This document shows positions 6,038 to 52,419 of a DNA stretch of 64,000 nucleotides, in pieces; position 1 is the stretch's first letter; the number at the start of each line of letters is the position of its first letter. Made by a program: the position numbers and the translations under genes. The DNA comes from Planctomycetota bacterium (GTDB lineage: Bacteria; Planctomycetota; PLA2), in assembly GCA_021776785.1 (NCBI GenBank), contig JAJFFF010000044.1:150578-214577 (forward strand), read 5' to 3'. The notes below the pieces were generated by a model. That model was not told where the DNA came from, searched no databases, and saw only the letters and a program-made list of their open reading frames with translations.

Positions 6038-6066
6038 ACTTTGCGCTTCATCCCCGCGATCGTTGT

Positions 6067-7188
6067 ATGTTCAGAATTCAAAACACCATGCCCCGCGACC
6101 ACACCAGCACCAAGACGGACTCCTCGGAGCCTCAGGCCGCCGCACAAGCAGCGCCGGTGACCGTGCGTCCGTTCCGTACGGACGACACGACGGCGTGGAA
6201 CGACTATGTGCTTGCGCATCCGCGCGCCACGTTCTTTCACCAGATCGGATGGAAGAACGTTCTCGACACGGCGTTTGGGTACCCCGCGCACTATCACCTG
6301 GCTGAACGCGCCGGAACGATCGTGGGCGTGTTGCCGCTCTACGCATGCCGCTCGATCAAAGGCAAGCTCGCGCTCTACAGCTTGCCGCACACCGTCTATG
6401 GCGGTCCGGTCGGCGACGACGCCGCGGTCGAGGAAGCTCTCGTCGAAGCGGCGCGCAACTTGGGCTCCACCTTACGCACGCCCTTAATCGAATTGCGCAA
6501 TCGCCACGCTTCGCTCGTCGATCTACCGACGCTCGAGGGGTTCGCTACGTTTGAGAAAGAGCTCCCGACCGAAGTCGACAAGGTCTACAAGACGTTTCCC
6601 AAAAAAGCGCGCGAGGCAATCAACCAGTCGCGCAAACGTCACAAGCTCGAAGCGGACTTCGAAGGCACCGTCGACTCGTTTTATGACTTGCTGGCCGCTT
6701 CGTACCACACGCTCGGTACGCCGGTCTTCCCCAAGAAGTTCTTCCAAGCGATCGCCACCAACTTCCCCGACCACACGTCAATCCTGAACGTGCGGCACGA
6801 GGGCAAGCCGGTCGCGACCGTCTTGTCGACGATCTTTCGCGACACGATGATGCCGCTCTACAGCGGTGAATGGTTCGGCGCGGGACGCCTCAAGGCGGGC
6901 AACTTCAAGTACTTCCGATTGATGGAACACGCCGTCGAACGCGGACTGACGCGCTATGACTTTGGTCGCAGCCGCTTAAACAACGCGGGCGTCGTGAAAT
7001 TTAAGACCAACCAAGGGTTTGAGGTTTCCCCTCTGCCGTACCAGGCCGCCGGAGCGAACGATTCCGCCGGCGTGGGCGGAACCGACCCCAACCAGGGGAT
7101 GTTTGCCAAGGCCCGCAAGGTCTGGCGCAAACTTCCCGCTTCCGTCGCCAAAGGCGTCGGGCCTCGATTGATCCGATACTTCCCTTAG
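6067..7188 (+). CDS. FemAB-family protein, PEP-CTERM-system-associated type
   Basis: 373 aa. WNDYVLAHPRATFFHQIGWKNV and KKAREAINQSRK segments are typical of the FemAB-related family found in exosortase loci. Confidence 0.8.
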   Translation: MFRIQNTMPRDHTSTKTDSSEPQAAAQAAPVTVRPFRTDDTTAWNDYVLAHPRATFFHQIGWKNVLDTAFGYPAHYHLAERAGTIVGVLPLYACRSIKGKLALYSLPHTVYGGPVGDDAAVEEALVEAARNLGSTLRTPLIELRNRHASLVDLPTLEGFATFEKELPTEVDKVYKTFPKKAREAINQSRKRHKLEADFEGTVDSFYDLLAASYHTLGTPVFPKKFFQAIATNFPDHTSILNVRHEGKPVATVLSTIFRDTMMPLYSGEWFGAGRLKAGNFKYFRLMEHAVERGLTRYDFGRSRLNNAGVVKFKTNQGFEVSPLPYQAAGANDSAGVGGTDPNQGMFAKARKVWRKLPASVAKGVGPRLIRYFP

Positions 7189-7234
7189 GGGAAGCCACAC
7201 CTCGACTGACACCAAGATTCCCTAGGACACAGCC

Positions 7235-12979: not shown

Positions 12980-12982
12980 GGG

Positions 12983-14812
12983 TTAGACCGCCACGACCGC
13001 CGGATCCTCGTGAATCGAGAACCACTGTTCCAACATGATGAGCGTCCAAACCATGACGCCGTAGTATCCGGCGTGCCCGGTCTGATGCATCCGTTGAATC
13101 TCGTCGATGAACGCCGGCTTGACGATGCCGCGCTTCTTCAGTCGCGCAAGGCGGTCGCGCGAGAACTCCTGGAGCGGCTCGTAGGTCCGCAGCCAAACGC
13201 CAAACGGCAGACCAAAACCGTGCTTGCTCTTGGTCAGCACTTTTTGCGGCAAGAAGTCGCGCAGCGCGTGCTTAAAAAACCAACGGAGCGTCTGACCGCG
13301 CACCTTGTAGTCGATCGGAAGCCGACCAGCAAACTCCGTCAAACGGTCCGTCATGAGCGGATACGTCACGTTGACGCCGGCAAGTTCACACGAGCGATTG
13401 ACCTTCACGAGGTCGTTGTCCGCAAGCGTGATCTTGCAGTCCAAGGCCAGTTGCCGGTTGAGTTCGTCCGACGCGTCGGCGCCGTGGTACACAGCGCGCG
13501 CCATGTTGAGCGGTCCGTCGCGATCGACGCTGCTCAAGAAGCTAGGCTCGAAGATGGTGTCGGCACCCAGCGTGTTGAGAAGCGCGTAGGCATAGATCCG
13601 ATCCGGCATCGGCTGACTCGCTCTATCGATGTAGCTGCGCGCTTTGCGAATCAGGTTGATCTTCGACCCGAACGGAAAGTAGTTCGCGCCGGCGCGCACA
13701 AGGCCACGCAGAGGCTTCGGGACCGACTGCCATTTGTCGATCGTCCCGAGCGACACGTAGCGCTCATTGCCGCCAAATAGCTCGTCGCCGCCGTCCCCCG
13801 CCAGCATCGTTTCGATGCCGTCGGCGGCCGCGATTTTGCCGCAGTAGTACGTCGGCACCGCCGATTCGTTGGCAAACGGATCGGCGTGCACTGCCGAGAT
13901 GTCCTGCACGGCGCTGAGGACGTCGTCGGGCGTGACGTAGTACGTGCGGTGGTCGGTGCCGAAGTGTTCGGCCGCGCACCGCGCGTACTCCATCTCGTCG
14001 TAGCCGTCGGCTTTGAATCCGATCGAGTACGTCGGCACCTTCTCGGTCGAGAGCTCGGCCAACACGCCCGCGATGGTGGACGAATCCGTACCGCCACTGA
14101 GGAAGCATCCGACCTTGCCGGAACCGGCGCACTCGCGCACCGACTCACGCAGCTCATTACCGAACTCGCGCTCCCACTCTTCCAAGTCGCGAACTTCGGG
14201 AGCGAAGCGCGGCCGCGTCCACGTCTCCGTGCGCACGCGCCCATCTTTGAAGTGCAGGAATTCGCCGGGCAGCAAACGCCGGTGATCTTTGCGCACGGTG
14301 CGCGGCGCCGGAACCTGATGGAAAAAGAAGTACTCGTAAATCGACTGCTCATCGATCGCCGAGCGCGCACCCGGATGCGCCTGCAGGGCTGCTCCGCTCG
14401 ACGCGAACACAAGCGTGTCCCCGCGATGACAGTACACAAGCGGCCGCCGGCCCAGGCGATCGGTCGCCAGCAACACTTCGCCGCCCGACACAACCGCGAG
14501 CGCAAAGTTCCCGGTCAAACGATCCAGGACCTTCGTACCGTCTTTCACGAATCCTTCGGCGAGCACCGCCGCCGGATCGTCGACGGCTTTGCCGTCCACC
14601 CAAAGTCGACCACTCACGGCCGCACGCAGCTGGTCCCGCTCAAAAAGAGCGACCTTGCCGTGAAGGGCCGTCGCCGCTAGAGCGCCGCCGTTCCACCGCG
14701 TCTTTTTCCAATCACTTTGGTCGTAGCGGATCAACGCCTGCGACATCGCCGAGGCCACGCCATCACCGGGCGCGCTCTGGGCATACCCCGTCCACCCACA
14801 AAGTCCGCTCAT
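12983..14812 (-). CDS. Asparagine-synthase-family amidotransferase, second paralog
   Basis: ORF 12983-15010 trimmed to ATG 14812 (MSGLCGWTGY), because the upstream part overlaps the SGNH gene. SGGTDSS PP-loop present. 3-nt gap to asnB. Confidence 0.8.
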   Translation of the reverse strand: MSGLCGWTGYAQSAPGDGVASAMSQALIRYDQSDWKKTRWNGGALAATALHGKVALFERDQLRAAVSGRLWVDGKAVDDPAAVLAEGFVKDGTKVLDRLTGNFALAVVSGGEVLLATDRLGRRPLVYCHRGDTLVFASSGAALQAHPGARSAIDEQSIYEYFFFHQVPAPRTVRKDHRRLLPGEFLHFKDGRVRTETWTRPRFAPEVRDLEEWEREFGNELRESVRECAGSGKVGCFLSGGTDSSTIAGVLAELSTEKVPTYSIGFKADGYDEMEYARCAAEHFGTDHRTYYVTPDDVLSAVQDISAVHADPFANESAVPTYYCGKIAAADGIETMLAGDGGDELFGGNERYVSLGTIDKWQSVPKPLRGLVRAGANYFPFGSKINLIRKARSYIDRASQPMPDRIYAYALLNTLGADTIFEPSFLSSVDRDGPLNMARAVYHGADASDELNRQLALDCKITLADNDLVKVNRSCELAGVNVTYPLMTDRLTEFAGRLPIDYKVRGQTLRWFFKHALRDFLPQKVLTKSKHGFGLPFGVWLRTYEPLQEFSRDRLARLKKRGIVKPAFIDEIQRMHQTGHAGYYGVMVWTLIMLEQWFSIHEDPAVVAV

Positions 14813-31113: not shown

Positions 31114-31719
31114 CTACGGGTCGCCAGACGTTCCCAGACGATCGCGCAATTCGACGATCGCCCGGGCGAATCGCATACGCGCCGCCGCGTCGCTCGGTAG
31201 CGACAACTGCTCGGCGATCTCGCGAAACGACATTTTTTCCTCGAGGCGCAGTCGAATGACCTCCCGCTGATCGTCGTTGAGGTCGGCGAGCCGGGCACGA
31301 ATGAGAGAACGGTGTTCCGCATCCCCGGCCGCGGTGGCAGGTCCCGCCCCGTTGCGCGCGGGCGGGCTCCAACCCGTCGGCACGTGAACTTCGCGCTGCC
31401 GTCCCTCGTTGTCGAGATGCTTGCGCAGCTTCTTGCGGATCTTGTTCTCGCACTTGACGCGCAGCCAGCCGAGGAACGCCGCCTCGCCCCGGTCCTCAAA
31501 CTTCTCGAGATCTTTCATGACCTCCAAGAAGACGGACTGCGCAATATCCGTCGTTTGATAGAGCGCCTTCATGTCGCCACGCAGCCGCCCCCGGATCCGC
31601 GCCAAGACGGCATTGGAATACCGGCGATAGATCTCATCCAGCGCCTCTTCATCCCCCTCTTGAGCGCGGCGCAGCGCCGGCGAGAACTCCCAACCATCCA
31701 CACCCACAGCATAAACCAA
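31114..31719 (-). CDS. ECF-type RNA polymerase sigma factor
   Basis: 201 aa. Region 2 (DIAQSVFLEVMKDLEKF, FLGWLRVKCENKIRK) and region 4 (DDQREVIRLRLEEKMSFREIAEQLSLPSDAAARMRFARA). Confidence 0.85.
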   Translation of the reverse strand: MVYAVGVDGWEFSPALRRAQEGDEEALDEIYRRYSNAVLARIRGRLRGDMKALYQTTDIAQSVFLEVMKDLEKFEDRGEAAFLGWLRVKCENKIRKKLRKHLDNEGRQREVHVPTGWSPPARNGAGPATAAGDAEHRSLIRARLADLNDDQREVIRLRLEEKMSFREIAEQLSLPSDAAARMRFARAIVELRDRLGTSGDP

Positions 31720-31746
31720 ACGTTTTATCCGTGTGGAGTTGCATCG

Positions 31747-33720
31747 TTACTTCACAACGATGACTCGCTCGCCGGTGTCGGGTGAGATGGCCATCACGCT
31801 TGCGGTCGCTCGATCGCCCACGAGCACGACGTGGCGGGCTTCGTCGTACAAAACGGTCAGCGGGTTGTCGAGTGCCGGCCCGCGGGTCCTCACTTCGGTG
31901 AGTTCCCCGGAACGCAGATCGATGCAGATCAGCTCTCCGGATCCGACTTGGAACGCGCGTCGGCCGACGACGTCAATCGCTAGATCCGGAAGAAAGCTCC
32001 TTGCCTCCGCGACGAGATCGCGGTTCCCCGTTTGCGGGTCGATCGAAACGTAACCGCGCCCGAGATCGTTCACCAAGAGCTCACCGGTGGTCGCGCTCGC
32101 ATCCAAGCACCAGAGAGATTCGAGCGCGGGCCCGCTCCCGGCTTCCGCGCCAGAAAACACGGTTCGGTCACCGGTTTGTAGATCCACACGCACGATCGCC
32201 TTTAAGGCGATGTCCATCACCAGCGCGTATTGGCCGTCAAACGCAATGCGGTCCGGCCTCACCAGCAAGGGCCCGCTCCCGCGCGTACCGTCGGACAACG
32301 TGGTCACGTTCCCCGACGCCGGATCGACGGCGAGCAACGAGGGACCGGTCAAAACGCTCACGATCAACCGATCGTGCGTCGCGTCAAACAACATCGACCC
32401 GACCACGGTGTGCGGCGCCGCGCGAACGTTTTGGATCAACGTGCGCGTATTTCCTTCGATGAAAACGATGTCGCCGTTCGATTTCAGCGCGAATGTGCGG
32501 CCATCGGGCGACCTTACCAACTCACGAATGTTGTCGAGGTCCGGCCCGGTTCCGGCGCGCACGCCACTCAAAATCGAACGATGGCCCGTACCGACGTCGA
32601 TCGCAACGGTCGCATCCAAGCCTTCGTCCGTTAGCAGCAGGCGGTTGCGGTCCCGTTCGAAGACCATGCCGCGCGGCGCCACGAGTCGCGGGCCGTCCTG
32701 GCCGTCACCGGACAAAACGCGACGAATTCCCGTGATCGCGCTCCACTCGAGGACATACCCCGTGTTCTGGTCCACACCGAAGAGCACCGAGCGCGCGGCA
32801 TCCCACGCGAGCCCCCGCATGTCTGTCCCCGCCGCATCGGTGGAGAGTGTGGTCGCGACCGCCGTGTCGAGATCCCAAGCGGTCACCGTTTCCCCAACGG
32901 CGATCAACCGGTTGCCGACGCCGTCGATCACGAAGTCGTGCATCGCTTTAAAGCCGACGCCAGTAAGCGTCGTCCGCTCCGCCGTGGCGCCATCCACAGA
33001 AAACACACCGCCGCTCCCGGTTCGATCGCTCGCGATGAACTGCGTCGTCGCGGAGTCAAAACGCACGCCGGCAACGTTTGAGAACGAAGCGCCGGTGCCG
33101 ATTCCTTTCGCGGTCGCGATGTCGGTCGCGCCGCTCTCGAGATCGACACGAAAAATCGAACCGAGCCCACCGATGTAGGCCTCGCGCCCGTCGTCGCGGA
33201 TCGCGATGCGCCCGGCGTTCAAGAGCGCCACGCCGGTCAGCGGTAAAACGCTGCGCGCCCCCGTCACGAGATCGACCGCAAGCAAGCGATCGGACTCCAC
33301 CACTAACAACCGACCGCGCGTTTTGTCCAGTGCAACACCGACGGGGTTACGAAACGCCGGATCGGTCCGCTCGACCATGATCGCGGTGTTCGCGGTGTGG
33401 TCATCTCCATCCCGCACCGCCCGCACCGCCACGACGAAGTCGTTCGCACCGCGGTTGAGGGGGACGCGCACCTGCCACGTCGCAAACTGATCATCGCTGG
33501 TCGCTTCGATGTCGTTGACCGCAACTCCGTTGATCGCGGCGTCCGCCGCAGCCGTCCCGTTGACCAAAATCGTCTCTTGGTCCGTCACGCCTCCGGTGGG
33601 CGGGAACAAGACGCTGACGCGCAGGGCGATATCGGCTGCAGGTGCGCCGCCTCCCCCGCCGCACGCTCCAAGCATCCAAAATAGTGTGGCTCCAAGAATC
33701 ATCACGCGTCGTTGCATCAT
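31747..33720 (-). CDS. Lipoprotein with NHL-like beta-propeller repeats
   Basis: ORF 31747-34083 trimmed to ATG 33720 (MMQRRVMILGATLFWMLGAC, lipobox). The upstream part overlaps the LanC-like gene. About 10 recurring ~45-60-aa units of the type RLLVxD...VDxxTGxRxxLSG. Confidence 0.7.
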   Translation of the reverse strand: MMQRRVMILGATLFWMLGACGGGGGAPAADIALRVSVLFPPTGGVTDQETILVNGTAAADAAINGVAVNDIEATSDDQFATWQVRVPLNRGANDFVVAVRAVRDGDDHTANTAIMVERTDPAFRNPVGVALDKTRGRLLVVESDRLLAVDLVTGARSVLPLTGVALLNAGRIAIRDDGREAYIGGLGSIFRVDLESGATDIATAKGIGTGASFSNVAGVRFDSATTQFIASDRTGSGGVFSVDGATAERTTLTGVGFKAMHDFVIDGVGNRLIAVGETVTAWDLDTAVATTLSTDAAGTDMRGLAWDAARSVLFGVDQNTGYVLEWSAITGIRRVLSGDGQDGPRLVAPRGMVFERDRNRLLLTDEGLDATVAIDVGTGHRSILSGVRAGTGPDLDNIRELVRSPDGRTFALKSNGDIVFIEGNTRTLIQNVRAAPHTVVGSMLFDATHDRLIVSVLTGPSLLAVDPASGNVTTLSDGTRGSGPLLVRPDRIAFDGQYALVMDIALKAIVRVDLQTGDRTVFSGAEAGSGPALESLWCLDASATTGELLVNDLGRGYVSIDPQTGNRDLVAEARSFLPDLAIDVVGRRAFQVGSGELICIDLRSGELTEVRTRGPALDNPLTVLYDEARHVVLVGDRATASVMAISPDTGERVIVVK

Positions 33721-33776
33721 CGGTCCCCGCAATCCTTCGTTTGTATGAAGTCTGATGCCGAGGCGCGGTGAACCGG

Positions 33777-34965
33777 TCAGAAACGTTGCGGAGCCACCAT
33801 CATCGGCAGCGGCGTATCCCTTGGATGGGCAAGCCGCAGGAAGAAGTGGCCGATACCCGCCCAGCCAGTCATATAGGACGCAGAGTAGACGCCCGCCACC
33901 TTGTAGGTCCCGTTCTCCCAACGCAACAACGAGGCCCCAAATTCGCGCGCGCTGACCCAGTGCTTGCTCTTTCCCGTCCGCTGAAACGCCTCGATCAAGA
34001 GCTCCGCATTGCCGGACACGCCGTGGCACTGGCACCCCGAGCGCCGCGCCGTTCGCCCGAGCCGCTTCGTTGTCGCGACGCAACGGTCCAGCGCCGCCGC
34101 ATGCGTTCGTCGGAGTCGATAGAGTTCAAGAAAAAACAGCCCGGTGCCAGGCGCGCCGTGACACCACTGAATGCGCTTCCACTCCTTGCGTTGCGGAGGG
34201 TCGGTGCGCCACCAGTGCCAGCCGTCGGACCCTTCGGGCTCCGCCACGCTTATCACGTACCGTGCAGCTTGCGCGGCCAGCGTGCCGTACACCTTGTTCC
34301 CCGTCACGCGCGCGGCATGCAAAAGAAAGTAACCGATGCCCGCCGCGCCGTGGGAGAACCCGACGTACGTCGAACGCCCGGGTGCGATCGGCCAGCACGC
34401 CGTGTCGCGCTTGACACGCGCCGTCCGAACAAGGTACTCGGCTGCGTCCACGATGTGCTGTCGATGACGACGAGTCACCGCATGCAAATTGACGAGAAAT
34501 GTGTACGCGGGCGACTCCGGCGTCGCGCTTCTTTATCTCGGTTTGTATCGTGCGACCAAGAAGAAGCGGTGGCGGACGTTGGCGCGTCGCGCCCTCGATC
34601 GAGCATTCGCGCAAAGAGACGACCTGGACAGTGGTCTCTACACCGGCCGCGCTGGAATCGGGCAAGTCTGCTTGGACGCGTACCAGGCGACGGGGAGCGC
34701 GGCGTTTTTGACGCGCGCCAAGGCTTGCGCGGAGGGTCTGACCTACACGGCGACGGACATCATTTCCGGAGCGGCCGGCATCGGCGTGATCGCCACGCCC
34801 GGTTTTGACATCCGCAATCTTGTCGCCGACCTCGCGGGCGAGGCGCAGGCACACGGAACGGCGCGCCAGTCGGCGGACTGCGTCCGGAACCGACTGCGGA
34901 GGGCGCTGCTCCTGCGCGTGCGCCAGGACCGCCCACACCAAGACGCACGAGATTCGCAACCTCAA
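33777..34965 (-). pseudogene. LanC-like (lanthionine-synthetase-C-like) gene, disrupted by an inverted internal segment
   Basis: The minus-strand frame 33777-34499 encodes the C-terminal ~240 aa, with GFSHGAAGIGYF, WCHGAPGTG, CHGVSGNAELL and GWAGIGHFF. The N-terminal repeats are on the + strand at 34501-34788. A 5' remnant (ATG 34811, or signal-peptide-like TTG 34965) is on the minus strand. Confidence 0.6.
34500..34788 (+). other. Inverted gene segment encoding LanC N-terminal repeats 1-3 (boundaries +/- a few nt)
   Basis: The + frame reads VYAGDSGVALLYLGLYRATKKKRW...GLYTGRAGIGQVCLDAY...DIISGAAGIGV. It lies head-to-head with the minus-strand remainder of the gene. Hand-counted third-position G/C favours the + frame here. 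Confidence 0.6.
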
Positions 34966-36767
34966 TGCGTCTCCCGCACCGTGACGTCGGTCTGGCCGGG
35001 AGCAACCACAACGCGAAGGTCAACGGGTTCTGGTTTTCGTTCGATGCGGTAGGTTCCCGGCGAAACGCCCCACATGGAGAACTTCCCGTCCTCGCCGACC
35101 GGAACCCATGTGAAGTCCGGGCCGACCAGTCGCACGCGCGGTCCGCGCGTGACGTCTGCTAGCGTTCCTACGACGCGCGCGCCGGGTGCGACCACATCGC
35201 TCCACTGGTCCGTGAAGGGCAACTCGATCGAACCCGCATCCAAGAACGACCGCCCCGGAAGATGGAGGGTGACGTCGTACGCATCGGGAATAAACGGCGC
35301 CTCAAAGCGCCCGTGCGCATCGAACACGATGTAGGAGAAGCCTCCGGTACGCTTGTTCAGTTGGATCCGGCCCGGCCCGATCGGTGCTCCCGCCGTGTTC
35401 CGGACCGTACCCGTCCACCGCGGCAGTGCCGAAGCCAGCCCGAAGTCCAACACCGTCGTCGTTCCCTTGGTCAACGTCGTCGTGCGCGCAAGGACGGTCG
35501 CACTCCGGCGCCCTGCGCCGGGCGCGGACGAAACCGCCCAGTACTCACCGTCGGGCAATCCATCCGCGAAGTACGTTCCGTCGGCTCCGACTTCGACCCA
35601 TACACTCACGGGACTCGCTTTGCCGTTGATTTGAACGAGTGCCCCGACGTTGGCGCGTCCCACGGGGTCGAGGACGCGGCCCGTGAGCGCAGAGCCTCCG
35701 ATCGCAACGGTCAGCCGACGGCCCGGGCGCGTGATCGCTTCACGCAGCGGACGCCCATCACACGAAATGCCGACGACGTAGACGCCGCCGGGTAGTCCGC
35801 GCAACTCAAACGTCCCATCCTCGTCGACAGTCCCCCGTCGAACTTCGGGCAGATCCAGCCAGTGGTTGGGCAGGCGCCGGTAGTTTTTGTAGCGCAGGGC
35901 GTAGACCCGACCACCCGGAAGCGGACGTTCGAATTCACGAACCGTACCGACGATTGCGTCGGGTGCAACGGCAGCACCGGGCGATGGATTCGCCTCGCGT
36001 TGCGATGGGTCGATCCACTCGGTCGATACTGGAGGCGTCGCGTTCTCAACACGCACGGACCGTCGCTCGCCTCCCGGATCGGCATGGGCGAGGTTCGCCG
36101 TCCTCGCACGCGCGCGGCGATCCGGCACAGCTTCCGCGTCATGAGCGACGAGCTGCGCGGTGATGAGAACCGCCGCCGTCACGCCAGCGATCCCCGCGAC
36201 CGGAGCCACGAGCTTCGCCGTCCGCACCGCGGGATAGGCGAGCGGAAGCAACGCGAGGGCGAACGATCGGTCGTCATCGAACAAATCCGCGCGCCTTAGC
36301 CGCGCCCTCAGCCTCTGGACGCCCTCGTGCGTCCGGCGCCGCACCGTCCCGGGCGGAACACGCGTTTGCGCGGCGACCTTGGCCGCGCTGTAGCCGTCCA
36401 GATAACGCAGCACGATCGTGGAACGGTAGGGCTCGTCGAGTTCCAGAACGGCCTCGACGATCTTCCGGCGCGTCTCGATGTCGGCGATCGTGTCGCGCGG
36501 ATGGCTTGACTCGGACTGCGCGACGGCGTGCTCGCGGCGCAACCGACGCGCGTCGTCACGGAGTTTGCGCAACGCGAAGTTGCGCGCTACGGCTCGCAAC
36601 CAAGCGCGCAGCGTTCCGCGCGCAACTCGTGGATGTTCGAGAGCGGCTACCCAAGTGTCCTGCACGACATCGTCGACGCGGTTCTCGCTCCGCAGCAAGC
36701 GCCGCGCGACCGCGCGCACGAAGTCCTGGTGTTGCAGCAGATCCTGCACATCCAAAGGCGCGCTCAA
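34962..36767 (-). CDS. ECF sigma factor fused to a TM helix and extracytoplasmic CarboxypepD_reg-like beta-sandwich domains
   Basis: ORF 34962-37052 trimmed to TTG 36767, which forms a TTGA overlap with the upstream stop. Sigma regions 2 and 4 (DVVQDTWVAALEH; YRSTIVLRYLDGYSAAKVAAQTRVPPGTVRRRTHEG). TM segment VAPVAGIAGVTAAVLITAQLV. Repeated DGxFxxxGLPxGxY motifs follow. Confidence 0.75.
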   Translation of the reverse strand: MSAPLDVQDLLQHQDFVRAVARRLLRSENRVDDVVQDTWVAALEHPRVARGTLRAWLRAVARNFALRKLRDDARRLRREHAVAQSESSHPRDTIADIETRRKIVEAVLELDEPYRSTIVLRYLDGYSAAKVAAQTRVPPGTVRRRTHEGVQRLRARLRRADLFDDDRSFALALLPLAYPAVRTAKLVAPVAGIAGVTAAVLITAQLVAHDAEAVPDRRARARTANLAHADPGGERRSVRVENATPPVSTEWIDPSQREANPSPGAAVAPDAIVGTVREFERPLPGGRVYALRYKNYRRLPNHWLDLPEVRRGTVDEDGTFELRGLPGGVYVVGISCDGRPLREAITRPGRRLTVAIGGSALTGRVLDPVGRANVGALVQINGKASPVSVWVEVGADGTYFADGLPDGEYWAVSSAPGAGRRSATVLARTTTLTKGTTTVLDFGLASALPRWTGTVRNTAGAPIGPGRIQLNKRTGGFSYIVFDAHGRFEAPFIPDAYDVTLHLPGRSFLDAGSIELPFTDQWSDVVAPGARVVGTLADVTRGPRVRLVGPDFTWVPVGEDGKFSMWGVSPGTYRIERKPEPVDLRVVVAPGQTDVTVRETH

Positions 36768-38269
36768 CGACCCGCCCGCAGTACAAATCGCGCCTCGTAC
36801 GAGCGACCGCCCCACAGCGCCTTTTTCTTCAGATGCCGCGAGAAAACAACCATCAAGTGAACACGCCCCTCGCCGCCCCACTCCTCGACCGCCGCGGTGG
36901 CGTAGATGTGCGGAACCGTCTCGCCATCTTTGGTCACAACAACCGACCGACATCCTGTCACGCGGCGCGCGTCCTCCAGAGACAGATCCACACGCAGTCG
37001 AATGCGGTGCGTCCAACCGCCCTCTCCGCGCAGCACGTCGACCGGCGCCCAATACTTGCCCACGTCACTGCCGCGTTTCCATACAACCTCGAGCCCCTTC
37101 TTGGTCCAGGCGTGCTCCGCGCGAAACGGGTCTTCCCCCGCCGCGGCAACGGGTGCGAACGTCGGATCGCCGAACAAGGCGCGACACGCGGCGCCGCTGA
37201 TCATCTGATCGTGAATGTCGCGAAACGGCCATCCTTTGCCGGGTCGATGCTCGGGTAGCTCCAACGCCTTGCGACGATACGCGACAACGACATCGTCATA
37301 CGTCGCTTTGGAGGCCAACCCCAGGGGTTCGCCCGTCACCAAGACGTGCTCCATTTCGTGGTGGTTTGTTTCGCCGCGATCGGGATCCAGACCCGCAAAC
37401 ACCCCGGTTGTACCGGCCCGGATGAGCGAAAGAACAAACGAGTCTTCGGGGGCGACACGCTCCTCTTTCGCTTGGCCGTTGCGGTATCGAAACCACCGAC
37501 TGGTTACACCGCAATAGCACGGCCCACTGAAATAGAGTGCCGGATGCATCTGCAGTCCGCTTTCGCGCAGCGCCCGACCGCTGAGCCCGTGGTCGATGCC
37601 GTCCGGCATGCCGTGTCCACTCGCGCGATAGATACCAACGCCTTTGAGTTTGGACAGCCGCTGCGCGATGTCTTGGTCATCGTGTTTGTGCCAAAGGCCG
37701 CGGGTGGTCCAACCCTTCGCGACCTTGTGGGGCGCCGCGCGCGTCGGACCGTACGGTTTCGGAACCGGAGCGAATTCAACGATGGTTCGCGGCAGCTTCT
37801 TTTTTCCGGCCGCCACGGCGGCGATTCCACGAACGAACGCTGTTGCTTCCGCCGGCGTGGCGCCCGTGATGTATCCGAAGGCGAAGTCTACGAACGGATC
37901 GCCATCGAGCTTGGCCGCGCGTTCCAAGAAGTCAAAGTGCCAATTCACGTCGAGCTGGTCGTGCGGAATGACCACGGCGACGTACGCCGGACGCAGCCGT
38001 TTGAGCTCGCGAAACGCCGCCGCGACCTTGCCGACTTTGTACGAGATCACTTTGTCGTAGCCCCGCGCCCGCAGCGTCTCAAAGACGCCCTTCCACGCCG
38101 GATCATCGGCCACGGCCGTCAAAATCACGCGCATCCGGAGCCCGTCGGCGCTCGGCGCGCCGAGCTTGGCCGAGAGCGGGCCGAGAAACACAGCCGCTCC
38201 GGCGTCTTCCGGCTGGTTCTTCGCCAAACTCGAAGCGACAAGAAGCATCACGATCAAAGCGAGTCTCAT
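36764..38269 (-). CDS. Secreted protein, putative caspase-fold (C25/gingipain-like) cysteine peptidase
   Basis: ORF 36764-38401 trimmed to ATG 38269, which is preceded by GGAGGA. Signal peptide MRLALIVMLLVASSLA. Candidate His/Cys dyad contexts YRASGHGMPDG and LYFSGPCYCG. Confidence 0.4.
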   Translation of the reverse strand: MRLALIVMLLVASSLAKNQPEDAGAAVFLGPLSAKLGAPSADGLRMRVILTAVADDPAWKGVFETLRARGYDKVISYKVGKVAAAFRELKRLRPAYVAVVIPHDQLDVNWHFDFLERAAKLDGDPFVDFAFGYITGATPAEATAFVRGIAAVAAGKKKLPRTIVEFAPVPKPYGPTRAAPHKVAKGWTTRGLWHKHDDQDIAQRLSKLKGVGIYRASGHGMPDGIDHGLSGRALRESGLQMHPALYFSGPCYCGVTSRWFRYRNGQAKEERVAPEDSFVLSLIRAGTTGVFAGLDPDRGETNHHEMEHVLVTGEPLGLASKATYDDVVVAYRRKALELPEHRPGKGWPFRDIHDQMISGAACRALFGDPTFAPVAAAGEDPFRAEHAWTKKGLEVVWKRGSDVGKYWAPVDVLRGEGGWTHRIRLRVDLSLEDARRVTGCRSVVVTKDGETVPHIYATAAVEEWGGEGRVHLMVVFSRHLKKKALWGGRSYEARFVLRAGR

Positions 38270-38393
38270 GGTTCCTCCACTTAAAAGATCCCACAGACCC
38301 GAGGAGTGTTCGGAAAAAACGCGAAACCAAACCGACGCCGTCAGAACTTGGCGCAAAGCGCGCGGCGGATCACTTCCGTTATGCTTTTGAGTT

Positions 38394-39647: not shown

Positions 39648-39692
39648 GGAACGAGAAAAACGGGGGCGCCGTCGACCGACGCCCCCGTGCGT

Positions 39693-41051
39693 TTACTTCC
39701 GTTCGTAGAGCCAGACGAATGCCTGGCGCTGCGGGGCCGGCACGTACTTGCCGAGCTTCTTGCCGATCGCTTGGACCTGCTTCATCGCCCCCATGTACTC
39801 GGGGCGAAACTCCTTGTACACCTCGCTCGCTTTCTTCTGGTACTCGGGGTTGCTGTAGTCCAAACCGGCGGTCGCGGCCTTGACGGCGGCGGCCTGTTTC
39901 TTCGCGACCGCGTTCCGCTTCATCACAGCCACCGCGTTCTCACTTTTGAGCTTCGCGACGATGGCTTGTTCTTCGGCGGTGAGTTCGCGCGGCGCTTCCT
40001 TCCACATCGAGTAGCCGCCGACGACGAGATCGAGATCGCCATCACCGTCGTAGTCCACGGCGTCAACGTACAACCCGGCATCCGGGCGCGTCGGAGCTGC
40101 GTGGCCTTTCGGGCTCGGTGCGATCAACGTCTCCAACGCCGCGAACGCCGGCTTGCCGACGCTGCCGTTGTTGCGCGACAGGTAGACCCCGCCTCCGGTT
40201 CCGTTGGGCCCATACGAGTCGCCGAAGGACCCGGCGATCAGATCCATATCACCATCCCCATCCCAATCGACAAGGCGAGGTGCGGTCATTTTTGCGGCTA
40301 GTTCGAAGGGCTTGTCTCCCGCCATCACCGGGATGTTTTTGCCGGTGAACTTCGGCGCCGCGTTGGTGCCCTCGTTCATCTGGCGATAGAGGTGGCCACC
40401 TTCGTAACTGCCGAGCAAAAGATCGTAGTCCCCGTCGCTGTCCCAGTCGAAGGCGAGGGCGGAGATGCAACGCTCGCGCCGCTCTTTGCCGTTCGAGGTT
40501 TGTTCGAGGTTCTCGTGCTTCTTGCTCTCGTAATTCCAGATACTGGAGATTCGGATCCGCTGGCCTCGCGCGTCCTTGATCCGCTCGGGTGTGCCGAACC
40601 CTTCCTTACTTCCGTAACTAACGTGCGGCGAACCGTCGAACGTCGCCGAGATGTAATCGACATGGCCATCGGCGTTGAAGTCCACAAACTGTGAACCCAT
40701 GCCGATGCATCACCAGTTTTGGAATTTGAGAGCTTTGCCGCTGCTGTCGAGAAGCGGCGTCTCCGGGGTGAGACCGCGCTCGGTCCCGGCCGCGAACGTT
40801 ACGCGTCCGAAAAGGTCGCCGACGACGATGTCCTTATGACCATCGCCGTTTACGTCATAAAAGACCGGCGAAGGGTAGAGCCGACCGGCGCCGACAAACG
40901 CTTCGCCCGCTTTGATTCGTTGGGGCGCGGCGAACTTCGCCTGCCCGTCGACTTCATCGGCGACGCTCGGCGAGCCGCAAAGGAGCGCCGATCCTGCCAC
41001 CGCGAGCGCGAACGCCCGCCACTCAAAATCCAAGAACTGCGCGACCTTCAT
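39693..41051 (-). CDS. FG-GAP/VCBS-repeat beta-propeller protein interrupted by one in-frame TGA (40710-40712): candidate selenoprotein or pseudogene
   Basis: ORFs 40710-41099 (start trimmed to ATG 41051 after AGGAGGA; signal peptide) and 39693-40700 are in the same frame. They are separated only by TGA plus 3 codons. FG-GAP motifs (DVNGDGHKD, DFNADGHVD, DWDSDGDYD, DWDGDGDMD, DYDGDGDLD) span both parts. Confidence 0.6.
40667..40707 (-). promoter_or_regulatory. SECIS-like stem-loop immediately 3' of the in-frame UGA
   Basis: mRNA CAUCGGC (40707-40701) pairs with GCCGAUG (40673-40667). Inner helix GUUCACA/UGUGGAC is capped by a GUU loop at 40689-40687. Confidence 0.3.
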
Positions 41052-41436
41052 GGGAGATCCTCCTGTGTAGACGTACTGCCGCGATTGTAGCGCGAGCAAG
41101 GCCCGTCATGGCCGGGCAATCGGAGGAGGACGAAGAAGATTCGCGCGATGCCCGAGTCAACGAAGAACCGTCCCACGGTCGCGAGCTTGACGCCCGATTG
41201 ACCTGGTTCGGTATGGGAAAGAAGGAGTCACGGCCGGGATGGCCCCGGCCGTGACTTTGATTCATCCGTGAGCGCGGAATGAACCAGGGCCTGCAAAGAT
41301 TTTCTCTAGTTAATCCGATATGTAGGGGTGGGAGGGCGGTTGCGCGCCGCCCTCCCGAACAAGGTTGAACACTGGTCTTCTCGGTCTTCACAGGTGCAGC
41401 GCAGTTTTCAGCTGAGCTCCCCGGAAAAAAATATAG

Positions 41437-44400
41437 ATGACCGACGACACCCAGGAAAAGCAGGCGCATTTCGAACGTGTAGCGGGGACGTTTTCCCGCG
41501 CGCGCCGCGTCGTGCCCGCCCAGCGCGAGGCATTTTTGGACGTGGAATGCGGCGACGACGACGCCCTTCGCAGCGAAGTGCGCAAGCTCTTGGACGCCCA
41601 CGACGACGCGCCTGTCCAACCGCTGGCCATGGCGCCCGGCGTTCCCGGCTTCCGCATCTTGCGACGTATCGGCGTCGGCGGCATGGGCACCGTCTACGAA
41701 GCCGAGCAGGACCACCCGCGCCGTCGGGTCGCGCTCAAAGTGCTACGGCTGGACGCGCTGTCGGATGAGTCGCTGGCCCGGTTCGAAACCGAAGCACGAG
41801 CGCTCGCCCGCTTGCAGCACCCAGGCATCGCCCGGATCTTTGAGGCCGGCCGTTTCGAAGGCCCAGCCGGTTCCATGCCGTACTTGGCGATGGAGCTGAT
41901 CGACGGTCCGTCGATTCGCGACGCGGCGTCGCACCTGGATCGCGACGCGCGCATCTCACTCCTGATTGAAGTGTGCGCGGCGGTCGAACACGCCCACCAA
42001 CGCGGCATTCTTCATCGCGATCTCAAGCCCGCCAACATCTTGGTCGCCGACGACGGTCGTCCGCGGGTGCTCGACTTCGGCGTCGCGCGCGAGATCGAAG
42101 AGCCGTCGCCGCACACGCGCACCGGTCACCTCCTCGGAACGCTCGCCTACATGAGCCCCGAGCAGGCGCGCGGTGAGTTTGACGACCTGGACACGCGCTG
42201 CGACATCTACGCGCTCGGCGTGATCGGATACGAACTCGTGTCGGGTCAGGTTCCGCACAGCGTGCAGAGCCTACCGCTCCTCGAAGCGGCCCGCGTCGTC
42301 GCGAACGAACCGCACCGGTCGCTCGGCCGTGACGACCTCGCCGTTGTGCTTGACAAGGCTTTGGCCAAGGATCGCGAATTCCGCTATCCCTCCGCGACAG
42401 CCCTCGCCGACGACTTACGCCGTGTCCTCAACCGCGAGCCCGTGCGCGCACGGCCGCCGTCACGCGTGTACTACGTACGCCGTTTCGTGCAACGTAACCG
42501 CTCGATGGTCGCGTTTGTCGCGCTGGTCGTCGTCGCGTTGACGGTCCTTTGGTTCCGCGCTCTGGACTCGGCTGCCATGGCGCGCACGCAGCGGTCGGTT
42601 GCCGCGCGCGCGCGCTACGCGGCGCAGGTGCAAGCAGCTACGTCATATCTGGACCTGGCTGACATCGACGCCGCGCGCTCGGTTCTCTCGGAAACCGAGT
42701 CGAGTCAACGCGGCTGGATGTGGGATCACCTATCCGCCGTCACGAACAGCGACCTGGAGTCGCGCGCGTTCGACGCCGAGCCGTGGCTTGTCCATCCGTT
42801 TCAGTCGAGCCGCCCCCGCTATTGGTGCGACGGCCAGGTTCACGACGCCGACGGCCCGATGAACTACGGGTTTGCGCGCGGAATGCAGCGGCCCGTTCGC
42901 GCTCCCGACGACAACATCGTGGGCATGGGGAACAACAGGTTCTTCGTTCTTCGTGAGGGCGAACCGGCGCGTCACTTGTTCCGCGGGCTCCCGGAAGACT
43001 CGGACATCGATTTTTGCAACACCCACGATCGCGTCGTCGCCATGTCCGTGTTCGACCTACGCGGACGCGTCTCCGTCTACGACACAAAGACGCGGCGACC
43101 GCTTTGGATCAAAGACACGACACGGCTGAAGTTCGCGAGATTCTCCGCCGACGGCAAACATGTGATCGGCGCTACGTTTTGGAACGGCGAACTATTGATG
43201 TGGAACGCGGCCGACGGCACGCTGATTCGTCGATGGAACGGGCACACCGACCACATCACGCTGCTTGTGGTGAGTCCGGCAAGCGGGCACTTCGCCACGT
43301 TCGCCATGGACTGGCGCATCCGAATCTGGAACCAGAACGGCGCGCTCGTCGCGTCGCTGGACGATCCCGGTCAGTTCGTCCACGGACTCAAGTTCTCGCC
43401 GGACGGTTCGCTGCTCGTCTCGGCGCATCCGCGCGGCACGGTTCGCTTGTGGGACGTCAAAACGGGGATGCCGTACGGCGCCGCGGCCGGCGAGAGTTGG
43501 GACCACGTACGGGACGTGGCCTGGTCCGACGACGGCCAAGAAGTCCATTGCGTCGCCGGCAACAGCGTCTATCTTCGTGGCGCGCGTTCGCGCACTGTAC
43601 GGCGAGTGGTGAAACATCACGCGCCGCTTTCGAAAGACAAAATTCACCCCTACATCTACGACGTCGCGTACTCCCCAGACGGTCGTTGGCTCGCCTCGGT
43701 CGGATGGGATCAAACCGCGCGCGTCTGCAACGCCAAGACCGGCGAGCTCGTGCGCACGCTTGCGATCCCGAAGTACGTGTACGCATGTGCGTTCGATGCC
43801 GACAACGTGCTCTATGTCACGACGGATTGGGACGGCGTCGCCCAGGCGTGGGACATCACGACCGGCAAAGTGATCGCGGAACGCAAAATATCCGCCAAAT
43901 CGATGAGCGTTCATCCGAACGGAAAAGAACTCGCCGTCGGCGGCATTGCGGGCGTTCACTTCTTCGCACCGAAGACGCTGCGGGACTTGGCGCCCGAGCG
44001 CAAGATGAACGCGGCCGTCGATGCGTGCGCGTATTCGCCCACCGGCAACTTTCTCGCCGCGGGGGACACCGAAGGATTCGTCACGATCCTTCGCGACCGC
44101 AAGATCGTGAGACGGTGGAGAGCGCAAGCCGCCATCTTGTCCGTGGCATGGTCGCCGGACGAAACACGCGTCGCTGTCGGAACGAAAACCGGCCAAGTTA
44201 CCGAGTACGACGCGAAAACAGGACAGCGTGTGGATGGCCTTCAAATCCCGGAATCGCGCGTGTTTTCGCTCGTTTACTCGCCCGACGGACGGCTCCTCTT
44301 TATTGGTTCGGACGAGCATTCGATTCGCGTTTGGGACACCGTCGGGGGCGACGGATTGGGACGGCTTCGCGGGCATCGCGCCTACGTCAAGGGCATGGCT

Positions 44401-44487
44401 ATGAGCCCGGACGGGACCACGCTCGCATCCGCTTCGGGAGACAACACGGTGCGGCTGTGGCATCGGACGTTAGAGGGCACAAAGTAA
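41437..44487 (+). CDS. Ser/Thr protein kinase with TM segment and C-terminal WD40 beta-propeller
   Basis: 1016 aa. Kinase motifs GVGGMGTVYEA, HRDLKPANIL, DFGVA, TLAYMSPEQ. TM segment MVAFVALVVVALTVLWF. Multiple WD40 units (VRLWD, IRVWD, VRLWH). Confidence 0.9.
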   Translation: MTDDTQEKQAHFERVAGTFSRARRVVPAQREAFLDVECGDDDALRSEVRKLLDAHDDAPVQPLAMAPGVPGFRILRRIGVGGMGTVYEAEQDHPRRRVALKVLRLDALSDESLARFETEARALARLQHPGIARIFEAGRFEGPAGSMPYLAMELIDGPSIRDAASHLDRDARISLLIEVCAAVEHAHQRGILHRDLKPANILVADDGRPRVLDFGVAREIEEPSPHTRTGHLLGTLAYMSPEQARGEFDDLDTRCDIYALGVIGYELVSGQVPHSVQSLPLLEAARVVANEPHRSLGRDDLAVVLDKALAKDREFRYPSATALADDLRRVLNREPVRARPPSRVYYVRRFVQRNRSMVAFVALVVVALTVLWFRALDSAAMARTQRSVAARARYAAQVQAATSYLDLADIDAARSVLSETESSQRGWMWDHLSAVTNSDLESRAFDAEPWLVHPFQSSRPRYWCDGQVHDADGPMNYGFARGMQRPVRAPDDNIVGMGNNRFFVLREGEPARHLFRGLPEDSDIDFCNTHDRVVAMSVFDLRGRVSVYDTKTRRPLWIKDTTRLKFARFSADGKHVIGATFWNGELLMWNAADGTLIRRWNGHTDHITLLVVSPASGHFATFAMDWRIRIWNQNGALVASLDDPGQFVHGLKFSPDGSLLVSAHPRGTVRLWDVKTGMPYGAAAGESWDHVRDVAWSDDGQEVHCVAGNSVYLRGARSRTVRRVVKHHAPLSKDKIHPYIYDVAYSPDGRWLASVGWDQTARVCNAKTGELVRTLAIPKYVYACAFDADNVLYVTTDWDGVAQAWDITTGKVIAERKISAKSMSVHPNGKELAVGGIAGVHFFAPKTLRDLAPERKMNAAVDACAYSPTGNFLAAGDTEGFVTILRDRKIVRRWRAQAAILSVAWSPDETRVAVGTKTGQVTEYDAKTGQRVDGLQIPESRVFSLVYSPDGRLLFIGSDEHSIRVWDTVGGDGLGRLRGHRAYVKGMAMSPDGTTLASASGDNTVRLWHRTLEGTK

Positions 44488-50481: not shown

Positions 50482-51395
50482 CGTTTAGCTCCTCGCCGTT
50501 GGCGCATTCGAAAAAACCGCAGAATGGGTCGCGCAATCATGTCTGGATCGCGCTCGAAGGTAAGCGGCACATCCAGTAGGTCCACGCCCGCGCGGTGCAA
50601 CTCATCGGCGACCATGGCGTCATGGGCGACGGTGCGCGCTTCGTAGTCCTGGCGGACGCGCGGATGCGACCAATCGACGACATCGAGTCGGCCGGATTCG
50701 GGGTCGCGAACGCGCATCATGCCCGAGCTCGGCGCACGACGTTCCGGTGGCCTGAGGCGCACAGCGATCAAGTCGTGGCGGCGCCCGCAGAGACGAATCG
50801 GTTGCCGCCAATCGTCGCCTAAGAAATCGGAAATCAAGAACAGGACGGCGCGCTTGCGGATCACGCGCGCCGCGAACTCCAGCGCAGGCGCAAACGCCGT
50901 GCTCGGCCCGCCGCGTAGTGCCAAACTATCGCGCACAATTCGCAGCGCGTGCCCGACACCTTTTTTCGGCGGCACATACTTGTGCACGTCGTCGCTAAAC
51001 GCGATCAGTCCGACCTTGTCGTTGTTGCGAATCGCACTCAGAGCTAAGCAGCCGCAAACGCGCGCCGCGGTCTGGCGCATCGACCAGTGCCCAAACCCGC
51101 CTTCCATCGACGCGCTCAGGTCGAGCGCGAATACGACCGTTAACTCGCGTTCATCGACGTACTTCTTCACGAACGGGCGCCCGACGCGCGCCGTGACGTT
51201 CCAATCGACGAGACGCGGATCGTCCCCGTCGACATACTCGCGCACGCCGTCGAACTCGATTCCCGACCCCTTAAACACCGAGTTGTACCCACCCGCCATC
51301 ATCTCGGTCACGAGGCGGCGACTGAGCACTTCGATGCGTCGAACCTCCTCGAGGAGTTCCTGCAGCTCCAGCCGGGAATCGGCGGCGGCTTGCAT
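50478..51395 (-). CDS. DUF58 protein (VWA-like, MoxR partner)
   Basis: 305 aa. GIEFDGVREYVDGDDPRLVDWNVTAR and LDLSASM motifs. Confidence 0.85.
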   Translation of the reverse strand: MQAAADSRLELQELLEEVRRIEVLSRRLVTEMMAGGYNSVFKGSGIEFDGVREYVDGDDPRLVDWNVTARVGRPFVKKYVDERELTVVFALDLSASMEGGFGHWSMRQTAARVCGCLALSAIRNNDKVGLIAFSDDVHKYVPPKKGVGHALRIVRDSLALRGGPSTAFAPALEFAARVIRKRAVLFLISDFLGDDWRQPIRLCGRRHDLIAVRLRPPERRAPSSGMMRVRDPESGRLDVVDWSHPRVRQDYEARTVAHDAMVADELHRAGVDLLDVPLTFERDPDMIARPILRFFRMRQRRGAKR

Positions 51396-52384
51396 TAGGG
51401 GACCGGCACCGTGTCGAGCACGCGGCGAATCACGTCAACGGACGTGATGCCCTCGGCTTCGGCTTCAAACGTCGTGATCACGCGGTGCTGCAGCACAGAC
51501 ATCGCGACGGACTTCAGATCGTGCGGCGTAACGAACCCGCGCCCTTCCAAAAAGGCGCGCGCGCGAGCCGCTTGCGTGAGCGCGATCGACGCGCGCGGCG
51601 AGGCGCCATACAAAATGAGCGGCGCGAGATCGGCAAGTCCCGCCGCCGCGGGCTCGCGCGTCGCAAACGTGAGATCCACCAAGTACGTCAGCACTTTTTC
51701 GTCGACGTAAATTTCATCGAGTAACCGGCGTGCAGACAGAATCTTTTCGGTGCTCGACACTTGCTTCACACCGTCATGCCCTGTCGTGCGCGCCATGCGC
51801 TCGACAATCTGGCGCTCCTCCTCACGCGTCGGATAGTCGACGGTGACCTTCAACATGAACCGGTCAACCTGCGCTTCCGGCAGCGGATACGTGCCTTCCT
51901 GCTCGACCGGATTCTGCGTGGCCAACACGAGAAACGGCGACGGAAGCGTCCGCGTCTCTCCGGCCAGAGTGACCTGGCGCTCCTGCATCGCTTCGAGCAA
52001 CGCGGACTGAACCTTGGCAGGAGCGCGGTTGATCTCGTCCGCAAGCACGAAATTACCAAAGACAGGCCCCTGTCGAATGCTCCAGTCCCCGGTTTTCGGG
52101 TCGTAAACCTGGGTCCCGACGAGGTCCGACGGCAAGAGGTCGGGCGTGAACTGGATGCGCCGGAACACACCGCCCATGGCGCCGGCCATCGACTCCACGG
52201 CCAGCGATTTCGCCAGCCCGGGTACGCCCTCGATCAACACGTGCCCGTTCGCGAGCAGGCCGATGAGCATGCCGTCGAGCAACGTGCGCTGCCCTACGAT
52301 CACACGCTGCACCTCGCCGACAACGTCGCGCAGGAACTCGCTCTCCCGCTCTACGCGCGCGGTGATGGCCGATACGTCTGTCAA
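51395..52384 (-). CDS. moxR: MoxR-family AAA+ ATPase
   Basis: 329 aa. Walker A GVPGLAKS, Walker B VLADEINRA, and RIQFTPDLLPSDLVGT. Confidence 0.9.
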   Translation of the reverse strand: MTDVSAITARVERESEFLRDVVGEVQRVIVGQRTLLDGMLIGLLANGHVLIEGVPGLAKSLAVESMAGAMGGVFRRIQFTPDLLPSDLVGTQVYDPKTGDWSIRQGPVFGNFVLADEINRAPAKVQSALLEAMQERQVTLAGETRTLPSPFLVLATQNPVEQEGTYPLPEAQVDRFMLKVTVDYPTREEERQIVERMARTTGHDGVKQVSSTEKILSARRLLDEIYVDEKVLTYLVDLTFATREPAAAGLADLAPLILYGASPRASIALTQAARARAFLEGRGFVTPHDLKSVAMSVLQHRVITTFEAEAEGITSVDVIRRVLDTVPVP

Positions 52385-52419
52385 AACTACCTCTCGTCGG
52401 CGTTACGTGGCCTGCTTGA

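Follow-up and report, generated by a model that had tools for sequence, protein, structure and literature searches.

An in-frame TGA in an FG-GAP propeller gene of Planctomycetota is almost certainly a selenocysteine codon read with a conserved RNA hairpin

We analysed a 64,000-nucleotide stretch of DNA from a Planctomycetota bacterium (the 427-kb contig JAJFFF010000044.1, positions 150,578 to 214,577; hereafter the window), in which a gene for a predicted exported FG-GAP propeller is interrupted by a TGA codon that, judged by comparison with related genes, is almost certainly read as selenocysteine (Sec, U) with a conserved RNA hairpin. The gene lies on the minus strand (39693-41051): its frame runs from an ATG at 41051 to a TAA at 39695-39693, and the single internal stop is the TGA at 40712-40710. 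Read through, it is a complete coding sequence of 452 codons, including the proposed Sec114, and orthologues have the same architecture. A Shine-Dalgarno-like AGGAGG (41059-41064, read directly from the sequence) stands 7 nt 5' of the ATG. Residues 1-31 (40959-41051) are predicted to form a signal peptide, MKVAQFLDFEWRAFALAVAGSALLCGSPSVA, followed by DE; a hydrophobic N-terminus is found in all orthologues, and the structure model of the homologue P0161 (described below) has a low-confidence N-terminal helix. The 113 residues upstream of the TGA comprise this signal-peptide-like N-terminus and the first FG-GAP blade. The peptide context of the TGA is GKALKFQNW-TGA-CIGMGSQFVDFNADGHVD, with a downstream reading of CIGMGSQFVD. 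Directly 3' of the proposed Sec codon (40710-40712), a TGC (40707-40709) encodes Cys115 and would complete a vicinal U-C pair; Cys is present here in 55 of 56 TGA-bearing members of the family. The downstream open reading frame (ORF) of 335 aa starts with MGSQFVD at an ATG four codons past the TGA.

The preliminary description of this locus, made from the sequence alone, had noted that the two ORFs share a frame, reading NW-TGA-CIGMGSQFVDFNADGHVD, that the propeller continues across the stop and that the downstream part has no signal peptide of its own. All of this holds: apart from the TGA the frame is open from 41051 to 39693, the 335-aa part has no signal peptide, and the read-through protein is matched by the Pfam families FG-GAP_3 (PF13517; 5.2e-22, 78.6 bits against a cut-off of 26.9) and FG-GAP (PF01839; 31.5 bits against a cut-off of 22.1). 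No family of NCBIfam release 20, where most curated selenoprotein models are kept, matched it at E <= 1. In the predicted full product, a signal peptide is followed by a five-repeat FG-GAP/VCBS propeller, in which five DxDGDG loops can be recognised; after a helical hairpin, the chain ends in a C-terminal closing strand, AFVWLYERK (39696-39722), which is found family-wide and in the homologue model returns to the propeller after the helical hairpin. Two terminator-like hairpins bracket the gene, one with a T-run, resembling an intrinsic terminator, 4 nt past the TAA stop (39660-39688) and one upstream that marks the 5' limit of the transcription unit (41226-41256); none was found between the TGA and the downstream part. 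As also stated in the preliminary description, TGA is a normal stop elsewhere in the window. It ends 5 of the 15 strongly coding long ORFs there and about half of the family genes, just past the conserved WLYER C-terminus, so TGA is not reassigned and still serves as a stop codon.

The internal TGA is shared by every related gene that we read. DNA was taken from one genome per species, giving 46 loci, to which were added nine more divergent metagenomic members, drawn from a hidden Markov model search of 1.84 billion cluster representatives, and the paralogue at locus L006. A TGA occupies the same codon in 56 of these 56 genes (55 orthologues and 1 paralogue), down to ~30-45% protein identity. 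Nearly all of the 46 loci come from metagenome-assembled genomes (MAGs) of Planctomycetota from marine, Black Sea, wastewater, sediment and other sources; the carriers also include OZ245006.1, JADJWQ010000001.1 and the cultured Saltatorellus ferox Poly30 (L046; NZ_CP036434.1), which has an intact orthologue with its TGA near position 1,144,490 on the minus strand. The 46 loci share the motif NW-U-C[IV][GR]MGSQFVD, and each has ~100-130 in-frame residues 5' of the TGA, with a hydrophobic N-terminus and the first blade. Contigs from four biofilm-metagenome runs of one study, each assembled on its own, carry the TGA too, with no variant there. Automatic gene calls for the window gene and the nine metagenomic members give two ORFs, or the downstream ORF only. 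The databases bear the same mark. When 5.8 billion proteins were searched, each of the best 120 matches (54-71% identity) was confined to the post-TGA part; almost every one is 335-336 aa in length, spans 74% of the query and has the N-terminus MGSQFVD. In the search of 1.84 billion cluster representatives, ~70 of the 150 best (representing clusters at 50% identity) have, by hand count, their first residue exactly at the Met or Val that follows the TGA site. Neither a nonsense mutation nor faulty assembly can account for a TGA at the same codon throughout and for cluster representatives that start at the site. Two loci have anomalies that look like data artefacts and not real truncations: a frame change in the downstream part of L018, probably an assembly indel, and masked runs of N in L044.

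Alignment of Sec with Cys is a classical selenoprotein signature, and Cys is the most frequent residue at the site in homologues that have no TGA. Eight full-length homologues of this kind were found, five of them with Cys-Cys at the site: P0161 (NW-CC-TGMSLQFVD), P0190 (NW-CC-VGASSQLVD), P0222 (LS-CC-FVGA), and P0233 and P0240 (both IY-CC-IGSSP). P0167 has His-Cys, and P0189 and P0241 have no Cys at the site. TGA forms far outnumber the non-TGA forms in this family; to our knowledge, Cys homologues outnumber Sec forms in most other selenoprotein families. They also do so among the new selenoprotein families of the Global Ocean Sampling survey (Table 4).

In the mRNA, the UGA is followed by a SECIS-like (selenocysteine insertion sequence) upper stem-loop, GGGUUCAC-AGUUU-GUGGACUU (40678-40698, minus strand; apical loop 40686-40690), whose stem starts 11 nt past the UGA. 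A lower stem of CAUCGGC/GCCGAUG and neighbouring pairs extends it (40667-40707). With hairpin columns numbered from the U of UGA as 1, a 76-nt RNA from the window folds at -27.6 kcal/mol and places G24-U25 in the apical loop. Such a hairpin had been described in advance, along with a G-U about 24-25 nt from the U of UGA and a likeness to the geometry of the Escherichia coli fdhF SECIS. The RNA does fold in this way, the G-U is where it was said to be, and both spacing and loop G-U match fdhF; of the two helices, the inner one is conserved, whereas the outer one is only partly so, with pairs 8-10/42-44 mostly kept and the others variable. The stem-loop alone has a folding energy of -7.8 kcal/mol in the window and -8.9 kcal/mol on average in the family, and the window value falls to -20.5 kcal/mol with the lower stem. 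Folding energy by itself is unremarkable (z = -1.83; 8 of 200 shuffles fold as well), so that the significance of the hairpin comes from comparative data.

These data are of several kinds. The RNAalifold consensus fold of 47 genes has an 8-bp stem joining columns 15-22 with 28-35, a 5-nt loop A-G-U-U-Y and weaker lower pairs, and the family stem consensus is GGGUUCAC/GUGGACYU. From the TGA onward, the DNA is nearly invariant in the 47 genes (TGA TGC ATC GGC ATG GGT TCA CAG TTY GTG GAC). Codons +5 to +10 have zero synonymous variation except at the third base of TTY, the last loop nucleotide, and GGT and TCA are not the usual Gly and Ser codons of these genes. Across columns whose amino acid is conserved to 90% or more, to which the test of synonymous variation was limited, codon entropy averages 0.25 bits for codons +1 to +11 compared with 1.07 bits elsewhere (Mann-Whitney p = 2.4e-5). 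In the alignment of 56 sequences, 97.4% of cells are paired, a share that drops to no more than 57% once the partners are shifted by 1-3 columns, and compensatory changes occur at three pairs, with few or none of 500 shuffles reaching the observed values. Two adjacent pairs are changed on both sides in the divergent L050 and L053 (CAC/GUG to UGC/GCA) with the stem kept, and in L004, where the peptide changes from GS to SP, a U-G pair becomes C-G and the stem is retained. A covariance model built from the alignment has one strong match in the window (81.8 bits) and scores 80 and 54 bits on two TGA members outside the training set. Rfam contains no family for the hairpin; its single match is a chance one (E = 4.4).

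The hairpin is missing where the TGA is missing in P0161 (Cys form, TGC; -2.5 kcal/mol) and P0167 (His form, CAT; -1.0 kcal/mol). On the contig of P0167 (L059), a TGA paralogue with the hairpin and an AGUU loop adjoins the His (CAT) paralogue without it. These paralogues, at 610-1632 and 1916-3148, are followed by short ORFs, one with a weak DsbD_N match, and they form a natural pair for studying the gain or loss of Sec. In the published bSECIS model, the loop has 3-9 nt with G in one of its first two positions, usually followed by G or U, the stem has 4-16 bp, the UGA lies 16-37 nt from the loop and the minimum free energy is at most -7.5 kcal/mol (PMC13188914). The window element, with its 5-nt loop, 8-bp stem, G-U at loop positions 2-3, 19-nt spacing and -7.8 kcal/mol, agrees with the model on each count.

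Genes decoded by SelB and a SECIS, such as E. coli fdhF, have in common with the window gene an in-frame UGA followed by a stem-loop within the coding region, a stem 11 nt past the UGA and an apical G-U; as in the window family, Cys replaces Sec in some of their homologues. The fdhF SECIS is a minimal hairpin 11 nt past the UGA with an exposed G-U, a bulged U in the upper stem and a GGUC-type loop. By comparison, the upper stem of the window element is continuous, with a U19-G31 wobble, no bulged U and G15-U35 as its first pair, its loop is AGUUY, and the protein fold is unrelated to formate dehydrogenase. As far as sequence can tell, the element would work like an fdhF-type SECIS and not be a copy of it.

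Evidence that at least one carrier of the family uses Sec comes from another gene near a family member. The flank of L022 contains, on its minus strand (12268-13867 of the reverse complement), a fusion of Transglut_core and AhpC/TSA-Redoxin domains with an in-frame TGA in the context FFATW-U-GRC (0-based position 13555 of the reverse complement) and a canonical hairpin, GGAGUCC-GGU-GGACUCC, 14 nt downstream. This gene probably encodes a UxxC selenoprotein of a catalogued type. Because such a Redoxin-type gene with a SECIS lies on the L022 contig, the L022 genome, itself a family carrier, appears to use Sec, which is indirect support for Sec decoding of the family. Kim et al. 2016 (PMC4807772) reported full sets of selA, selB, selC and selD in four planctomycetes and, in planctomycete P2, a transglutaminase-like gene within the sel operon; the pairing of transglutaminase-like genes with Sec genes may not be accidental. 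At L031, the convergent neighbour of the family gene (11129-12772, minus strand) is a 548-aa ORF with an in-frame TGA in AKLDWL-U-LCLGSE, a candidate U-x-C site, followed at a spacing of 24 nt by the hairpin GAAGCGCAC-GGG-GUGCGCUUC (-13.5 kcal/mol), and its C-terminus has a DsbD_N-like motif, RFQVCDEERCLRP. It had no Pfam match and no counterpart in the other loci; possibly it is a further selenoprotein missing from the catalogue.

The fold was examined on the natural Cys homologue P0161, standing in for the window protein. Its AlphaFold2 model (predicted local distance difference test score (pLDDT) 89.5, predicted template-modelling score (pTM) 0.86) is one continuous propeller with a long helical hairpin and a final strand. 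The CC of P0161 is at residues 117-118, and the model would place the U-C pair in the loop that leads into the inner strand of blade 2. A Foldseek search with the model returned only generic FG-GAP propellers, the best being ITFG2 (KICSTOR), CRTAC1 and integrin alpha4, with TM-scores of at most 0.36 and 11-18% identity. FG-GAP/VCBS propellers of this kind (integrin alpha, ITFG2, CRTAC1/ASPIC) share Pfam FG-GAP matches and repeated DxDGDG loops with the window protein; unlike it, none is a selenoprotein, and the window family adds the long helical hairpin and the C-terminal closing strand. S. ferox Poly30 and L045 have a short form of the family, like P0189 and P0241, without the long helical hairpin before the closing WLY strand (VGGYAETKSETTDGYKGQAGIWLYLRK), and the helical insert is therefore optional. 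L045 (JBLIHL010000238.1) is labelled a Paracoccaceae MAG and is the member closest to the S. ferox form; its contig is probably a mis-binned planctomycete contig.

Domain fusions suggest what the site may do. DsbD_N is the periplasmic electron-donor domain of DsbD and passes electrons to thiol-disulfide proteins. A DsbD_N domain (PF11412) is found above the Pfam cut-off in P0190 (N-terminal, Cys-Cys), P0240 (C-terminal, Cys-Cys) and the L006 paralogue (C-terminal, Sec), and DsbD_N also occurs in the main-family Sec member P0124/L060; the window protein itself has none. Because DsbD_N is fused to both Sec and Cys members, we propose redox exchange with a DsbD_N-type domain. The DsbD_N partners DsbC, DsbG and CcmG are thioredoxin folds with CxxC, whereas the presumed acceptor in the window family is a propeller with vicinal U-C or C-C. 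The L006 paralogue is of interest in itself: one frame at 4873-8175, without TAA or TAG, has two TGAs, and within it the paralogous propeller (IPTT-U-CISFCPQFVDYDADG, with the same hairpin GUCCAC-AGUUC-GUGGAC and the C-terminal DsbD_N) continues, with no stop codon between, into the N-terminus of the main-family gene. The whole frame could encode a two-Sec fusion protein or be two abutting genes.

In the mechanism that we propose, the mRNA would form a bacterial SECIS hairpin 11 nt past the UGA and the UGA would be decoded as selenocysteine; by analogy with E. coli, the hairpin would recruit SelB carrying Sec-tRNA(Sec) to the ribosome. The product, of ~45 kDa, would be exported through its signal peptide and would fold as an FG-GAP/VCBS beta-propeller closed by the C-terminal FVWLYER strand. 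Sec114-Cys115, in the loop that precedes the inner strand of blade 2, would form a selenenylsulfide/selenol-thiol centre in the periplasm or cell envelope and would exchange electrons with a DsbD_N-type domain. A redox centre of this kind, working with a DsbD_N-type partner in the cell envelope, is the most likely role for the vicinal pair.

The nearest precedents are planctomycete ASPIC/UnbV FG-GAP repeat proteins whose annotation is split into two genes by an in-frame TGA; three of four were positive in bSECISearch, and their genomes have selA, selB, selC and selD (Kim et al. 2016, PMC4807772, S9 Table). These candidates, from planctomycetes P1 and P2, are the IMG gene pairs 2643313947/8, 2643315136/7, 2643315207/8 and 2643291570/1. 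Like the window family, they are FG-GAP proteins of planctomycetes split by TGA. By their published descriptions, they are set apart in two respects: the window protein has no UnbV_ASPIC domain (Pfam), and their closest non-Sec homologue has Gly at the site, where the window family has Cys. Sec also adjoins Cys, as in the window protein, in the families SaoL, HgcA, SaoC, MbdU, KCU-star and CopZ-like GxUC, and in all of these proteins the adjacent pair can form an eight-membered selenenylsulfide ring or chelate a metal. Adjacent Cys-Sec is also found in mammalian thioredoxin reductase (GCUG). Set against the adjacent Cys/Sec families, the window protein has the order U-C and not C-U, in an internal propeller loop and not near the C-terminus; their NCBIfam models gave no match to it, and there is no relationship of sequence or fold. 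The 2026 catalogue of 119 prokaryotic selenoprotein families (PMC13188914, Table 1 and text) has no FG-GAP, VCBS, propeller or Planctomycetes entry, and a 2022 selenoprotein review likewise has no FG-GAP, VCBS or propeller family. Our literature search returned nothing linking selenocysteine to VCBS or Saltatorellus to selenocysteine, and matches for selenoprotein with FG-GAP and with Planctomycetota were irrelevant. The recoding mechanism is known; the family appears to be new to the catalogue.

Several observations limit the case for a Sec-dependent redox protein. Neither selA, selB and selD (tblastn with E. coli SelA, SelB and SelD from NC_000913) nor tRNA-Sec (ARAGORN, Rfam) had a match in the window and the 46 loci, whose flanks total ~0.85 Mb; there was no tRNA of any other kind and no Rfam family either, but at ~1% of each genome this coverage is too small to be informative. 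Because the hairpin is nearly invariant, covariation amounts to a few independent events and is modest evidence alone, and because the hairpin overlaps the strongly conserved peptide MGSQFVD, part of the nucleotide conservation reflects protein constraint. Taken alone, 14 of the 47 stem-loops (-6.5 to -7.4 kcal/mol) are slightly weaker than the -7.5 kcal/mol threshold, and in the divergent L052 the loop reads AAGGC, where G first occurs at position 3. Not every member has the vicinal pair, since in L057 (W-U-E-V-G-A-S-P-Q-F-V-D) Glu follows Sec; this member lies at 14-73 of a contig that ends 13 nt upstream, so that its N-terminal part falls outside. Comparison of the 47 loci found no conserved gene neighbourhood and no operon partner, the best cluster occurring in 7 of 47 and being, from its window member (41437-44487), a Ser/Thr kinase family; function is therefore not readable from an operon. 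On the other side, three of the checks named in the preliminary description, namely Cys at the site in homologues, conservation of the hairpin with synonymous-site constraint and some compensatory change, and the presence of the TGA in independent assemblies, came out in favour of Sec. We give a probability of about 0.85 to the interpretation that 41051-39693 is a single selenoprotein gene, with its UGA read as Sec through a SECIS hairpin, and that it encodes an exported propeller with a likely Sec-Cys redox centre.

The competing accounts differ in what they make of the stop. Were the locus two separate genes, translation would end at the UGA to yield a secreted 113-aa fragment and restart at the AUG 9 nt downstream to yield a 335-aa protein. 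Most members do have ATG, or TTG in L060, four codons past the TGA, and gene callers predict both ORFs everywhere; however, that position lacks a start codon in L052 (GTT), L056 (CAA) and L057 (GCG), and in many members the callers are forced to a later GTG. Because only the upstream part has a signal peptide, two genes would put the halves of one propeller in different compartments, yet full-length single-chain homologues with Cys at the site exist and the P0161 model is one continuous propeller. Two genes would also leave unexplained why the hairpin is kept only where the TGA is present, and we regard them as highly improbable. We also think it very unlikely that a standard tRNA (for example for Trp, Cys or Arg) suppresses the UGA, perhaps stimulated by the hairpin. 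Downstream structures can stimulate such read-through in other systems, and the sequence covered around the family genes contains no sel genes; against this, homologues have Cys, which usually stands in for Sec, at the aligned position, the hairpin fits the bSECIS consensus in spacing and loop G-U, and the L022 contig carries both a family member and a UxxC selenoprotein gene of known type with its SECIS. If a standard residue sufficed, a sense codon would be expected in many lineages, which the persistence of TGA, in forms that far outnumber the others, contradicts. The preliminary description had offered a choice between a Sec-Cys selenoprotein and a recent nonsense pseudogene. Its first branch is supported by the Cys homologues and the conserved hairpin, whereas a pseudogene, or a sequencing or assembly error, is refuted by the comparative data and keeps almost no weight: the bare presence of an internal stop is all that speaks for it, and the identical position of the TGA in 56 of 56 genes from different organisms and environments, strong purifying selection on both halves and the agreement of four independent assemblies speak against it. 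The main alternative on function leaves recoding to Sec unchanged. The Sec-Cys pair might bind a metal or metalloid (for example Hg, Cu, As or Se) instead of cycling between redox states, as could be expected from the catalogued adjacent Cys/Sec families tied to metal or organometallic chemistry, such as MerB-like SaoL, HgcA, MbdU and CopZ-like GxUC (PMC13188914, Table 1). Repeated fusion to DsbD_N, a domain for thiol-disulfide electron transfer, points instead to redox exchange, and the neighbourhood comparison of 47 loci found no conserved metal-handling genes nearby; metal binding is thus an unlikely role, if one with real precedent.

Elsewhere in the window, the region at ~31700-38300, on the 3' side of the selenoprotein gene (3904-10426 of L049), contains several genes, among them a fusion of an ECF-type sigma factor with a CarboxypepD_reg domain, another gene of the sigma-70 family, a large Ser/Thr kinase and a pair of adjoining LanC-like ORFs, perhaps a single gene that is split; several large ORFs there have no Pfam family. 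The 335-aa ORF at 51395-52402 (minus strand) was considered as a paralogue and rejected, being by eye an unrelated AAA-type ATPase.

The bacterial selenoproteins known so far are mostly metalloenzymes or proteins with thioredoxin-like folds. A secreted propeller with a vicinal Sec-Cys pair would, if the assignment is true, be a new structural setting for selenium chemistry, and transfer of electrons from DsbD_N-type domains to Sec-Cys would define a new branch of envelope redox biochemistry. We suggest, tentatively and at somewhat less than even odds, that the window gene is the founding member of a large, mostly Sec-dependent Planctomycetota family of exported FG-GAP propeller oxidoreductases that receive electrons from DsbD_N-type domains, and the first selenoprotein on a propeller scaffold. 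At 50% identity the family falls into dozens of clusters, whose members come from Planctomycetota of marine, freshwater, sediment, wastewater and biofilm habitats, and S. ferox Poly30 is a cultured carrier for direct tests. Its near-invariant SECIS variant is usable for training bSECIS models. With the recoding recognised, many database entries would be put right and the selenoprotein catalogue would gain a family; it would also enlarge the predicted selenoproteome of the Planctomycetota, a phylum whose use of Sec has been little studied.

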